The notes: generated by a model from the letters alone, not told the origin. A DNA stretch of 64,000 nucleotides from a virus (IMGVR_UViG_3300032307_000764:96001-160000); one strand, 5' to 3'; counted from the stretch's first letter, positions 43,341-61,718 are shown. Numbers and translations are program-made.

Positions 43341-43943
43341 TTAATCGTCGAAGCCTCCGAATCGTTTTAATATATTAGCACCTTTACCTAGGTCTTCACC
43401 TTTTAAACTAGGTGGGATCTCAAATTTCTTAACAATCTCTGGATCCTCTTCCATTTTCCTTCTAAGAACATCTTTATAAGTTTCGTTTCCTAAAAGTTCT
43501 TCTTCTGACATAGGAACTCCTTGCTGTCTTAAGATATACTTAATCAAGAATCCCATTTTAAAAAGATAATCTTCAGTAGTCATACAAGCTCTTCTAAGAT
43601 CAGTATTTAATCTAGGGAATTCCGAAGATTTAGAAGGTCCTACAACCACTCTAATACTTCCGTTGTGCATGATGTTATATTGAGGATATCCAGGTTTAGG
43701 AGATTTCATAGATTCGTGTTTAAATGCTATGTTACCTAAACGATCTTTAAAGTATCTTTGTTCTTCAGTACCTTGTGTTTCGATACCGATTGGGTTTTCT
43801 GCGATCATCTCTGTCCAACCCATTGCAACCATATCTTTATAAGCTTCTGATTCTCTGATTGGCTTAAAGCTAAGAACCGGGCATTTTTTAGCTCTTCTAA
43901 CTTCTTGTATTTTTTTGAACTCTGGATAGTTTTTAATACTCAT
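43341..43943 (-). CDS. Tagged hypothetical protein with C-terminal GxxILxRFG tail; paralog of 60810-61718
   Basis: MSIKNYPEF..IQE start after GAATATATA; ends KGANILKRFGGFDD. Confidence 0.65.
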   Translation of the reverse strand: MSIKNYPEFKKIQEVRRAKKCPVLSFKPIRESEAYKDMVAMGWTEMIAENPIGIETQGTEEQRYFKDRLGNIAFKHESMKSPKPGYPQYNIMHNGSIRVVVGPSKSSEFPRLNTDLRRACMTTEDYLFKMGFLIKYILRQQGVPMSEEELLGNETYKDVLRRKMEEDPEIVKKFEIPPSLKGEDLGKGANILKRFGGFDD

Positions 43944-44097
43944 TTTTCCTTTGTTTTTCTTATATATATTCTTTCTACTCGCGGACTCCGAGAATTTTTC
44001 AATAGATCGTGAAATTTTTTGGTATCTTGACAGTATATTTAGAGTCCTCAGCAAAAAAACAGTTTTTATGAATTGTTTTTTTGTTCCCTATATATAG

Positions 44098-44128
44098 AAA
44101 AAGCCGGTTCCTAGGAATCGGTTTTTTT
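44098..44128. terminator. Hairpin flanked by A and T tracts
   Basis: AAAAAGCCGGTTC-CTAG-GAATCGGTTTTTTT. Confidence 0.6.
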
Positions 44129-44156
44129 ATTTGAGTTTTTTCTATAATATTGCGAT

Positions 44157-44708
44157 ATGTTAAAAGTACACTTTGAAAATTTTAATCACTTCTTGGAGAT
44201 AACTAATCCTCCTTCTAGTGTAACTGATCGTCTAGAGAAGCTTAAGACTCTCAGAGAAAGACCGGATTATCATCCAGAGCCCAATACTTTTGAGCACATC
44301 CGAATAGTGACTGAGAGATTAATGCTCACTGATGACATCGATCTTATATTCGCAGGATGTATGCACGATCTATTTAAGCTTGATACGCTGAGATTAAATC
44401 CTAAAACCGGATTTCCTACTTGTCCTGGACACGATACGCAAGTAGCGAGCTTTATACGAAGTAATAAAGAGGTTCAGGAATGGATGATTAGATATGGAGC
44501 TGATGTTGAAACAGTTGCAGATCTTTGTAAAGACCATATGAGATTTCATCAGTTCGATAGAATGAAAAAATCTAAGCAAGACGAGTTTCAAACAAGACCT
44601 CACTGGGGTAAATTAATATACTTAGGTGCTGCAGATAATATGATAGTTGAATTCGACATAGACAATTTAGAAAAAAGCTGGAAATGGAAAGAAAGAAGTA
44701 CGCTATAA
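44157..44708 (+). CDS. HD-domain phosphoesterase
   Basis: YHPE...FEHI, MHDLFK, GHD, DHMR, AD. Confidence 0.75.
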   Translation: MLKVHFENFNHFLEITNPPSSVTDRLEKLKTLRERPDYHPEPNTFEHIRIVTERLMLTDDIDLIFAGCMHDLFKLDTLRLNPKTGFPTCPGHDTQVASFIRSNKEVQEWMIRYGADVETVADLCKDHMRFHQFDRMKKSKQDEFQTRPHWGKLIYLGAADNMIVEFDIDNLEKSWKWKERSTL

Positions 44709-59182: not shown

Positions 59183-59716
59183 TTATTTGTTTTTAAAACC
59201 CCCGAGTCTTCCTAATAGTCTATATCCAGGTTCTGCTTCTGGATTAATTAAGTGGATATCGCCAAGACCATATTGTTCAATATTAAGAGGTACACTTTGT
59301 ACTATCTCTATAAATTTTCCAGGGGTCATTGATTCATTAGGGATCTTTTCATAGTAATCATCGCTGAAATAATCAACTATATCAGAGTCTTCCATATCTC
59401 TAACATTTGAAAATTCCATTGATTCCATTTCATCCTCAGTAAATTCTTTTGATTTTTCGTAGATGTAAATTCTTCTATATTTCTCGTCTTCCTCAAGATA
59501 CCCATTACTCCAAACCCCCATCTTGATTAGGTCCTGTTCTGTTGGCATAACCCAAACCTCATAGGAGATATCATAAGGTGTATCATAAACACATGCAGAG
59601 GTAGTTTTTAGAGAAACTCCATTAACAACGATCTCACCGGAATTATCGATTATAGAATCCCACCCTGCTTCATTTAACTTATTAAATTGATTGAAAGATT
59701 TGATTCGATTTAGCAT
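59183..59716 (-). CDS. Tagged acidic protein with C-terminal tail motif
   Basis: RIKSFNQFNKLNE; ends GYRLLGRLGGFKNK; GATATATA at 59721-59728. Confidence 0.65.
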   Translation of the reverse strand: MLNRIKSFNQFNKLNEAGWDSIIDNSGEIVVNGVSLKTTSACVYDTPYDISYEVWVMPTEQDLIKMGVWSNGYLEEDEKYRRIYIYEKSKEFTEDEMESMEFSNVRDMEDSDIVDYFSDDYYEKIPNESMTPGKFIEIVQSVPLNIEQYGLGDIHLINPEAEPGYRLLGRLGGFKNK

Positions 59717-59730
59717 GATCTATATATCGA

Positions 59731-60798
59731 TCAAATACCAAATCTATTTAGTATACTAGAACCCTTCTCTATATCCTTGGCTTCTTCACTACCAAATTCT
59801 TCCTCGAATCTAGCTAAAGTTTTTGGGTTAGATTTTCTTAAGTACTTTACTATCTTACCTAGAGCTAAAGGATTTTCCTCTTTAAGCTTTCTTAAAGCAA
59901 TCAACAATTTTTCTACATCCCCTATAGCACCATTTGACAAAATAGCAATATACAAATCCCTAGCAGGAACTAAAATATCAGTTGTTGGAGCATAAGAATT
60001 TTCTCTTCTAATTAGACCATCGTATCTTTTATTTACAACATAAATTATTGCTTTTCTAAAAAATTCATCTAGCTTCTCCATTGACGAAGTTCCAATGCTA
60101 ATTATGGCTCTGTTTCTGTTCATCTCATCTTTAGCTGAATATCCTTCCTTGTTAGTTAACCTTATATTGAGATTTGGCTCAAATGATACCCCAGTTATCT
60201 GATCGCACAAATTAAAAGGATCTACATTTATTTTAATATCTGAGTATTCATATATTTTACCACCGTTAAAAAAAACACCCTCGAATTCTTTATAAGTGGG
60301 AAGAGTATTTAAAACATCATGATCCGTTATCATCGAAGATAATCCACTGTTGTTCTTATACTCTCCTATAATCTCCTTGGCATTATTCATCTTGATAACT
60401 TTACTCCAATTAGATTTTATCCATTTTTCTAAATCCCCCTCGTTTAATCCTCTCTCCTTTCTTAGCAATATAAATCTGGTAATCGAGTATTTTATAAGCT
60501 CCTCTAAAGTATCGAAGCATCCATACCCATAAGTATTTCCAGAAGACTCGCTAATCTGACACCATTGATTATTATATTTGTATAATCTAGTGTTACCAGC
60601 ATAAGCACCCTTGATATAAACTCTACCGGTTTTAACAGCCTTAAATAGATCCTCGATTGGTAAAGACCTTCCGTTAGCAACTAAGGTCTGTAGGAATTTT
60701 CCATCCTCACTATTTCTAATGTAGTCCATTATTACAGGACCTGCTGAAGGATCCTCAGATTCATTAAGATAGCTTTTATATTCTAGTAGATGCTTCAT
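59731..60798 (-). CDS. Tagged protein with C-terminal tail motif
   Basis: MKHLLEYKSYLNE; ends KGSSILNRFGI. Confidence 0.65.
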   Translation of the reverse strand: MKHLLEYKSYLNESEDPSAGPVIMDYIRNSEDGKFLQTLVANGRSLPIEDLFKAVKTGRVYIKGAYAGNTRLYKYNNQWCQISESSGNTYGYGCFDTLEELIKYSITRFILLRKERGLNEGDLEKWIKSNWSKVIKMNNAKEIIGEYKNNSGLSSMITDHDVLNTLPTYKEFEGVFFNGGKIYEYSDIKINVDPFNLCDQITGVSFEPNLNIRLTNKEGYSAKDEMNRNRAIISIGTSSMEKLDEFFRKAIIYVVNKRYDGLIRRENSYAPTTDILVPARDLYIAILSNGAIGDVEKLLIALRKLKEENPLALGKIVKYLRKSNPKTLARFEEEFGSEEAKDIEKGSSILNRFGI

Positions 60799-60809
60799 AA
60801 GATATTAAA

Positions 60810-61718
60810 TTAGAAAATTCCAAGTCTTCCTAGAATCCTAGCTCCCTGTTTAATTCCGTTATCTTCCCAATTTTCAGGACTAGGTAAATACACAGATATA
60901 CCAGGATGTTTACTAATCATCTTCTCGAACTTATCTTTATACGAATCGGAAGAAGCTCCATCCTCAGTATTTAATTCTTTAATAAGATCATTTATTTCTT
61001 CTGGTGGAATTCCCTCCATACTTGCTCTATCCTTAAGGTGAGTATTAAAAACATAAACGATCTTAGGTACAAGCCCTTCGATATTTGTAATAGGGTAGAT
61101 AAGATCTGGGTGATCTGTTAAATATCCGCTAGCTCCTTTTCTTCTAATGTATCCTGATTTTTGTATTGTGTAGACAATTCCCGAATTACCAAACTTGAGA
61201 GCTACAGTTCCATTCTTTCTTTCGATAGGAGTAGAAACGATTTGAGCTCCATGCTTTTCTAGATCCTTTAATATAGGTAACGATTCCAACCCACTATCAA
61301 ATGGATTAAAATCCTTAGCACTATCTCTATCCTCTTTTATTAATGAATCCATCATCTTCCAGACATGATCACGAAAGACCCATCTAAGCTCATTTTGCGG
61401 AACATCATTAGGTATACCCTCAGGAGTAAAAGAAAACTTTAAACCATATTGCTGAGGATCTCCTCCTTTTGTGGGATCATAGATAATACCTAGTGAATTT
61501 TCTTTACCTTTCCATTTATAAAAAACCTCATATTGGTTATTAGATAGGTGCTTAAGAATAAAACCTCCGAAGGACGGGGAACTGATAAGAGTATTAGCTA
61601 GTCTCTTTGTTGTTAGATTCCCAAGATCCCTGATTAGCTTAATTATCTTTGAATCCATATACGGATCCTCTGATTCGTTAATTCTTGAAAATTCATCAAA
61701 TGTTACTATCTTCTTCAT
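60810..61718 (-). CDS. Tagged protein with C-terminal tail motif; paralog of 43341-43943
   Basis: MKKIVTFDEFSRINE; ends QGARILGRLGIF. Confidence 0.65.
   Translation of the reverse strand: MKKIVTFDEFSRINESEDPYMDSKIIKLIRDLGNLTTKRLANTLISSPSFGGFILKHLSNNQYEVFYKWKGKENSLGIIYDPTKGGDPQQYGLKFSFTPEGIPNDVPQNELRWVFRDHVWKMMDSLIKEDRDSAKDFNPFDSGLESLPILKDLEKHGAQIVSTPIERKNGTVALKFGNSGIVYTIQKSGYIRRKGASGYLTDHPDLIYPITNIEGLVPKIVYVFNTHLKDRASMEGIPPEEINDLIKELNTEDGASSDSYKDKFEKMISKHPGISVYLPSPENWEDNGIKQGARILGRLGIF

Follow-up and report, generated by a model that had tools for sequence, protein, structure and literature searches.

We analyzed a window of 64,000 nucleotides of viral DNA (IMGVR_UViG_3300032307_000764, bases 96,001-160,000), and found that seven genes on its minus strand, located between positions 43341 and 61718, encode proteins that end with the same short peptide, hereafter the tail. 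The tail has a well-defined motif, is strictly terminal, is under selection at the protein level, is attached to otherwise unrelated proteins, and differs between viral lineages in a concerted, lineage-specific manner. The window belongs to a 248,191-bp phage record of the IMG/VR database, denoted G000 (85% complete, 33% G+C); coordinates without a prefix refer to the window, and those prefixed with G000 refer to the whole genome. The data support a bipartite architecture in which an N-terminal tag and the tail flank a variable body, and do not support a mechanism similar to that of the membrane-binding protein MinD, which had been proposed in the preliminary description of this region. A common protein partner that co-evolves with the tails is the best-supported mechanism, and one to which we give moderate credence; both the partner and the function of the tail are what we infer.

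A shared C-terminal peptide on unrelated proteins

The strict tail pattern, G..[LIVM]L.R[FLIM], was scanned against all six-frame stop-to-stop frames of at least 40 amino acids (aa) in the entire 248,191 bp of G000. There were 10 matches, nine in real open reading frames (ORFs) and one in a 70-aa junk frame. All nine matches in real ORFs, i.e., the seven in the window and those at G000 195206-196267 and G000 220058-220672, lie 0-9 residues from the C-terminus. A tenth tail is encoded at G000 166234-166668, in a protein that ends with ..KGGSLLSRVGIY (..SLLSRVGIY) and has V in place of F/L; the distance between the end of the motif and the stop is 0-9 residues in 10/10 tails. The number of terminal matches expected from amino-acid composition is 0.036 (the mean of shuffled sequences is 0.035, with a maximum of 1), and no internal copies of the strict pattern were found among the 328 called proteins of G000. 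The consensus of the tail is K-G-x-x-[IL]-L-x-R-[FL]-G(-hydrophobic). The basic position is occupied by R in 10/10 tails of G000, although the K:R ratio of the proteome is 2.15. Synonymous codons differ between the tails at G, L, I, R and F, i.e., at every degenerate position; therefore, the tail is conserved at the protein level and is under selection as a peptide, rather than being a DNA repeat. Thus, all seven C-termini quoted in the preliminary description are present, the motif is far more frequent than expected by chance, it extends to nine or ten proteins genome-wide, and the suggestion that the differing codons reflect conservation of the protein is borne out by synonymous changes.

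The shared part is short. When a hidden Markov model (HMM) was built from the 43 residues preceding the tail, with one member left out each time, the omitted member was never recovered near the top; hence, the shared part comprises about 12 residues and is not a domain, and a longer shared C-terminal domain was rejected. The only pair of full-length proteins linked by BLAST is 59731-60798 and G000 195206-196267 (24% identity, E 1e-19), in line with the earlier statement that the middles are mostly unrelated. We extended the comparison of tails to the related sequences G001, G004, G022 (190,674 bp, examined whole) and L021. When the tails were cut off, the 23 tailed proteins of these sequences and G000 were separated into 13 body families without BLAST links between them, one of which is a leucine-rich repeat (LRR)-like repeat protein. 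An apparent family link between the proteins at 60810 and 43341 through a G004 protein was rejected because it disappeared once the tails had been removed. The modular architecture of a packaging tag, a variable body and a shared tail, as originally proposed, holds, and at least 13 body families from four related phage genomes conform to it.

A tail profile search yielded 10 matches in G001, a close relative, a single match in G004, and none in 18 other fragments or genomes of the clade, nor in PTm1, MaF61, Lak-A2 and LR756500; among 20 clade relatives, 19 were without a match. Neither a regular-expression scan nor the profile revealed tails in G013 (99% complete, capsid protein 69% identical), in which N-terminal tags are plentiful. 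The residue preceding F/L is always R in G000 (10 tails), G001 (nine), G004 (one) and L021 (three). Conversely, the nine tails of G022 are ..LLGNFG and ..LLGKFG (two each), and ..LLNNFG, ..LLKNFG, ..MLKNFG, ..ILKKFG and ..LLNKFG (one each), so that the position equivalent to R is occupied by N in 5/9, by K in 4/9 and by R in 0/9 cases. F is present in all nine G022 tails, G is followed by a hydrophobic residue in each, and acidic runs (e.g., ..GITDEDED) come after many of them. At least six of the nine tails are found on orthologs of R-type proteins, and codons differ among the G022 tails too.

As judged from these sequences, the same position has changed in parallel across many non-homologous genes. 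Gene conversion cannot explain the uniformity of the tails because codons differ in both lineages. The parallel change is most likely the signature of peptides that fit one receptor, the pocket of which differs between the lineages. Because this concerted, sequence-specific change affects non-homologous proteins without gene conversion, we lean, with some confidence, toward a docking-peptide explanation, in which all tails are read by one common, co-evolving protein receptor. Of the destinations considered in the preliminary description, the concerted lineage-specific change favors one common host or phage hub.

Three proteins with decayed or variant tails were also observed: ..ASSLLGRSGMFDF.. 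at G000 221066-221494, the G022 ortholog of which has an intact ..SLLKNFGI; ..SKILNDFGIG.. at G000 167768-168151; and ..SGILNMFGSLFGK at G000 181333-181731. The ..RFGL ends of two LamG-type proteins were rejected as tails, being a family-specific C-terminus with a superficial likeness to them. The LamG-type proteins at G000 201125-202747, G000 203292-204302 and L150 3590-5113 start with M..(S/T/A)RPFAYN and end with ..(N/S)RFGL, in distant lineages too.

The T4-like setting and the tailed proteins of the window

The source of the window is an uncultivated 248-kb T4-like jumbo phage. G000 encodes a gp23-family capsid protein (PF07068, 129 bits) and a gp21-family protease (PF03420, 37.5 bits) fused to a scaffold-like ORF, as well as a split family-B polymerase, topoisomerase II, ribonucleotide reductase (RNR), a helicase and a gp32-like single-stranded DNA-binding protein. 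The capsid protein of G000 is closest to that of an uncultured 462-kb phage (43%), followed by those of the Lak megaphages of Prevotella (39%) and of jumbo phages of Tenacibaculum, Flavobacterium and Chryseobacterium (29-33%). The word TAnnTTTG, similar to a -7 element, is a promoter word of Bacteroidota, and it is enriched upstream of G000 genes (38 vs. 14.5 expected). Because of the relatives of the capsid protein and this enrichment, the host is probably a member of Bacteroidota. DNA or protein relatives of the tail region were not found in the INPHARED collection, and Pfam and PHROGs searches with nine tailed proteins gave no match.

About 8/10 tailed proteins, as assessed by eye, carry a T4-like N-terminal tag (N-tag) that ends with (L/I)-x-E, such as ..YLNE/S, ..RINE/S and ..KLNE/A. 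In T4, (L/I)-x-E is the cleavage site of gp21, and the capsid-targeting sequence (CTS) is the first 10 residues of the internal protein IPIII (PMC9026906); the sequence of the T4 CTS is MKTYQEFIAE (10.1101/2021.01.19.427310). The preliminary description placed the N-tag on six of the seven window proteins, and inspection by eye agrees, the exception being 57877-58608. Directly upstream of the tails, an (L/I)-x-E site is not conserved in the window protein sequences. Five of the seven window tail genes have a late-type box, GATATATA or AATATATA, with its end 4-19 nt upstream of the ATG; the remaining two genes, without a box, directly follow another gene on the same strand. Genome-wide, the box was found at 7/10 tail genes vs. 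53/318 other genes (p=4e-4); it is also present at the protease-scaffold gene, at the neighbors of the capsid gene and at tail-structure genes, and is associated with N-tags (p=2e-8). By analogy with T4, the tailed proteins appear to be late, processed head cargo. It should be noted that, if the box is a T4-late-type -10 element, the mRNAs would be leaderless or nearly so, without a Shine-Dalgarno sequence.

All seven tailed genes of the window are on the minus strand. The first (43341-43943) encodes 200 aa from the ATG at 43943, with the tail KGANILKRFGGFDD encoded at 43344-43385, a CTS-like N-terminus MSIKNYPEFKKIQE and a AATATATA box at 43963-43970; its G022 ortholog has the tail KGAGMLKNFGVFGDDED and the N-terminus MKKYQEFRTIRE. 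In the G022 gene at 149192-149797, the N-terminus MKKYQEFRTIRE followed by A is nearly the same as the CTS of T4 IPII/IPIII, MKTYQEFIAE followed by A; the capsid protein is only distantly T4-like. The second protein (46818-47663, 281 aa) has the tail RGSSLLSRFDS at 46821-46853 and a GATATATA box at 47671-47678, and its G022 ortholog (34% identity) ends with KKGIGLLGNFGI. The third (54350-54910, 186 aa) has an isoelectric point (pI) of 4.35, the tail KGGSLLNRFGDI at 54353-54388, the N-tag MKNLKSFHLFE and a GATATATA box at 54915-54922; an L021 relative with 30% identity ends with TGANLLNRLG. The fourth (57877-58608, 243 aa) is very acidic (pI 4.21), has the tail MGYGLLRRLGEKRIPIQE at 57880-57933, and lies directly after the gene 58616-59167, without an N-tag and without a box of its own. 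The fifth (59183-59716, 177 aa) has the tail PGYRLLGRLGGFKNK at 59186-59230, the N-tag MLNRIKSFNQFNKLNE with the site before A, and a GATATATA box at 59721-59728; its G022 ortholog ends with KGFGLLGNFGVFDS. The tail of this protein, PGYRLLGRLG.FKNK, is kept in 12 homologs down to 59% identity, and the N-tag varies. The sixth (59731-60798, 355 aa), the founder of a widespread family, has the tail KGSSILNRFGI at 59734-59766 and the N-tag MKHLLEYKSYLNE, with the site before S. The seventh (60810-61718, 302 aa) has the tail QGARILGRLGIF at 60813-60848, the N-tag MKKIVTFDEFSRINE with the site before S, and a AATATATA box at 61723-61730; its relatives in G004 and G022 end with KKGASMLSRFGLF and KGAGLLNKFGLFD, respectively.

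The family of the 355-aa protein documents the persistence of the tail. There are 14 homologs at 51-95% identity, all ending with KG[SA]SI[LI]NR[FLI]G[IF]. A profile search of the family against 1.84 billion representatives produced 48 relatives, and nearly all full-length ones among them keep both an N-tag ending with ..NE before S and a terminal tail, the flavors of which range from ..LLGKFGIE and ..MLGRFGFN through to acidic ..ASDLGSLGF and ..ADLGDLGF. The tail is kept even at 24% identity, in the paralog pair. In the AlphaFold2 (AF2) model, residues 1-12 and 347-355 have a predicted local distance difference test score (pLDDT) of <50, with one helical turn at 349-352; the N-tag and the tail are thus predicted to be unstructured. 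The modeled body of the 355-aa protein has no fold match in PDB or in the clusters of the AlphaFold database, and no leads came from the ESM Atlas for the bodies of two further tailed proteins. In the homolog P0009, MKHLLEYKSYLNE is replaced by the N-tag MKKIITFGEFSKINE, which is of the type of the neighboring gene 60810-61718; this swap points to modular exchange of tags by recombination.

Candidate receptors and competing readings

Under the docking-peptide explanation, the tail would be a short linear peptide that, held by a flexible linker, has been added to the C-termini of at least 13 unrelated, probably late proteins within a single sub-clade of jumbo phages; in most of these proteins, it is combined with an N-tag of the T4 capsid-targeting type that finishes with a prohead-protease site. 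One common protein receptor, co-evolving with the tails, would bind all of them; this receptor may be a component of the phage head interior. If so, the tail would mimic the conserved end of the scaffold and provide a second signal, not removed by cleavage, for loading or retention, comparable to the cargo-loading peptide of encapsulins.

A docking site in the head interior is our leading guess for the receptor, albeit a tentative one, because the C-terminus of the scaffold resembles the tails, scaffold ends bind coat proteins, and encapsulin peptides bind the lumen. In G000, the protease and the scaffold are fused in one 677-aa ORF (G000 18267-20300), the end of which, ..Y[LM]xx[IV]AxxLEx[KR]F, is conserved in about 70 relatives (among loci L024-L103). 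The C-terminal stretch extends about 32-33 residues past a conserved (L/I)-x-E site, and, by this pattern, a conserved peptide is likely released from the C-terminus of the scaffold-protease. Six tails, the scaffold and one other ORF of the head region share a shortened form of the pattern, [LI]..[KR]F no more than 5 residues from the end, for which the chance is 0.6% per protein. Scaffold C-termini bind coat proteins in other phages; coat-binding C-terminal ends are known from the scaffolding proteins of P22, phi29 and herpes simplex virus 1 (HSV-1), and the HK97 protease has a targeting tail. In encapsulins, the cargo peptide binds a hydrophobic pocket on the lumen of the HK97-fold shell and is sufficient for loading (PMC7355545). 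It is conceivable, although less likely than not, that a tailed phage uses an encapsulin-like C-terminal cargo-loading peptide to dock proteins to the interior of its HK97-fold capsid. Equally speculative is the form that such loading might take, i.e., a portable tag of ~10 residues that imitates the scaffold end, works alongside a cleavable N-tag and co-evolves with the docking site.

A number of points weigh against this scheme. The N-tag is absent from two to three tailed proteins, and the status of the tailed proteins as head cargo is argued by analogy. Where an N-terminal targeting tag is already present, the need for a second head signal is unexplained, and relatives with a 68-71% identical capsid protein carry N-tags but no tails. 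The likeness between scaffold and tails involves three positions and was noticed after the fact. No co-variation of tail and scaffold was seen, the scaffold of G006 keeping K-R-F, where G006 and G022 come from the same sample and were not shown to be the same phage. For the receptor of the tails, there are candidates only.

The tails could also dock to a non-structural hub, namely, a host protein encountered after injection, the phage DnaJ or the MTREEF repeat proteins, a reading that we consider rather unlikely even though the motif behaves like a short linear one and co-varies by lineage. A complete type-I DnaJ is encoded by the phage at 28975-30030 (plus strand), with a J domain, a CXXCXGXG zinc finger and a DnaJ_C substrate-binding domain; this DnaJ would pass the cargo on to DnaK of the host, to be unfolded or refolded. 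Peptides preferred by DnaJ contain hydrophobic or aromatic residues together with Arg. Homologs of the phage DnaJ are found in G022 (61%) and in G013 (39%), the latter being tail-less, which speaks against DnaJ as the hub. The MTREEF proteins, which start with these residues, are five tandem repeat paralogs, as seen in an alignment, located directly upstream of the tail genes on the same strand (61734-63790, minus strand), with a variable number of ~22-aa SIPPGVxFNNGGxVxL repeats and a conserved C-terminal helix. Their AF2 model (pLDDT 83) is a beta-rich repeat with weak, insignificant LRR or beta-helix matches. This family is present in exactly the four tail-bearing genomes of 23; however, the same distribution is common to about 80 clade-specific genes, and the fold matches are not significant, so that MTREEF is a candidate tail partner only. 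Narrowing by presence and absence leaves 83 candidate genes for the receptor, too many to single one out. A conserved host hub, in turn, would not explain the switch from R to N/K in close relatives, unless the hosts differ.

The preliminary description likened the tail to the amphipathic membrane helix of MinD, which would tether the proteins to the inner membrane after injection or in the producer cell; this we regard as unlikely, though less so than the readings that follow. The E. coli MinD sequence KGFLKRLFGG, which was used in tandem to tether a protein (PMC5471200), and the tail share the K-G start, a hydrophobic pair, a basic residue and the F-G end. The helical hydrophobic moment of the tails is 0.40-0.58, similar to or above that of known membrane-targeting sequences, and the AF2 model has a one-turn helix at residues 349-352 of the 355-aa protein (pLDDT <50). 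However, there are just three hydrophobic residues between the two glycines of the tail, and even the stronger MinD sequence was used in tandem for tethering. Net charge, counted from side chains only, is +1 to +4 in G000, -3 to +3 in G022 and negative in remote homologs, compared to +3 in MinD; acidic runs such as ..GITDEDED stand behind many tails, and in distant tails, e.g., ..ADLGDLGF, acidic residues and Gly abound. One lineage has R without exception, although K is 2.15 times more common in the proteome, and N is found in 5/9 tails of the sister lineage; such a concerted sequence-specific change is not expected for lipid binding. Thus, because hydrophobic residues are few, charge is not conserved, and R-only and N/K-only lineages exist, these sequences make a generic lipid-binding helix unlikely, though conceivable for the G000 flavor.

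The conservation might in part be at the DNA level, if the tail-coding DNA doubled as the promoter word TAnnTTTG for the next gene, which seems very unlikely as an account of the tails. The word is found in 8/19 tails of G000 and G022 (e.g., 59737-59748) vs. 3.3 expected under synonymous resampling (P=0.003), it is enriched upstream of genes in G000, and A is the first letter of the codons for R (AGR), N and K. Yet, it is absent from 11/19 tails, synonymous variation is seen at the G, I/L and L positions, and F, L and V replace one another; the motif never departs from the reading frame or from its terminal position, and the resampling test was carried out post hoc. Possibly, some tails also serve as promoters of the following gene, which leaves the protein-level pattern unexplained.

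A still less probable reading is a sliding-clamp-binding tail, like the C-termini of T4 gp43, gp33 and gp55, which represent the same phenomenon in a T4-like phage, i.e., unrelated proteins that end in a short hydrophobic peptide. In G000, the polymerase ends with ..SPNLLLVRALF and shares [IL]-L-x-R with the tails; however, this C-terminus is identical in G000 and G022 despite their differing tails, tail-less relatives keep the polymerase motif (..NLF..NALF), and the tail genes are CTS-tagged and appear to be late. A gp45-type clamp was not detected in G000 with PF09116. The family-B DNA polymerase is encoded as two genes 15 kb apart (16894-18300 and 33954-35123, plus strand), and its C-terminal half ends with ..SPNL[LF]xxxxL[FW], conserved in the clade and likely a clamp-binding peptide. 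Finally, that the tailed proteins are plain diverged paralogs with the tail as their best-conserved remnant is hardly credible, since, although one true pair exists and weak C-terminal BLAST matches link some members, these links vanish without the tail, leaving 13 separate families including the LRR-like protein, and the upstream leave-one-out HMM fails.

Significance and comparison with known systems

To our knowledge, jumbo phages pack many head proteins, the choice of which is poorly understood beyond the T4 N-terminal tag. The tail looks like a second such signal, portable and C-terminal, carried by at least 13 unrelated proteins, and the R-type and N/K-type lineages constitute a natural co-variation experiment that offers a direct handle on the receptor. 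The tailed set, from a clade of Bacteroidota phages related to the Lak megaphages, consists of fast-evolving ORFan proteins that are probably injected and are candidates for host-takeover or anti-defense functions. If docking of the tails takes place at the capsid interior, cargo loading in phages would be linked mechanistically to that of encapsulins, and the tail would be a minimal programmable packaging tag for loading foreign proteins.

The internal proteins of T4 (IPI-III and Alt) and the tailed proteins alike have unrelated, fast-evolving bodies and N-tags of 10-15 residues with aromatic positions that end with an (L/I)-x-E gp21 site, and a gp21-family protease occurs together with a gp23-family capsid protein in both genomes. 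However, no shared C-terminal peptide has been described for the T4 internal proteins, whereas a subset of the tagged proteins here bears a second, uncleaved-looking C-terminal module. The T4 gp45 clamp-binding peptides are likewise shared hydrophobic C-terminal peptides on unrelated phage proteins, but the tails vary independently of the polymerase C-terminus and belong to CTS-tagged, apparently late proteins. The membrane-targeting sequences of MinD and FtsA are similarly C-terminal and short, and the tail, too, may be amphipathic, as drawn on a helical wheel; the tail, in contrast, is conserved by sequence rather than composition, has no conserved positive charge and shows concerted lineage substitutions. 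Scaffold ends and the tail of the HK97 protease resemble the tails in being short, C-terminal and amphipathic and in combining a basic residue with anchors that are aromatic or aliphatic, but the tails are on non-scaffold proteins and have L where the scaffold has E. With the encapsulin cargo-loading peptide, the tail shares a length of ~10 residues, a composition rich in L/G/S with basic residues, and a C-terminal position on cargo proteins that are unrelated and from which a flexible linker separates it. The two peptides differ in consensus, the tail genes (G000 139-220 kb) do not adjoin the capsid gene (G000 20.3 kb), and the particle here is a DNA-filled virion rather than a nanocompartment.

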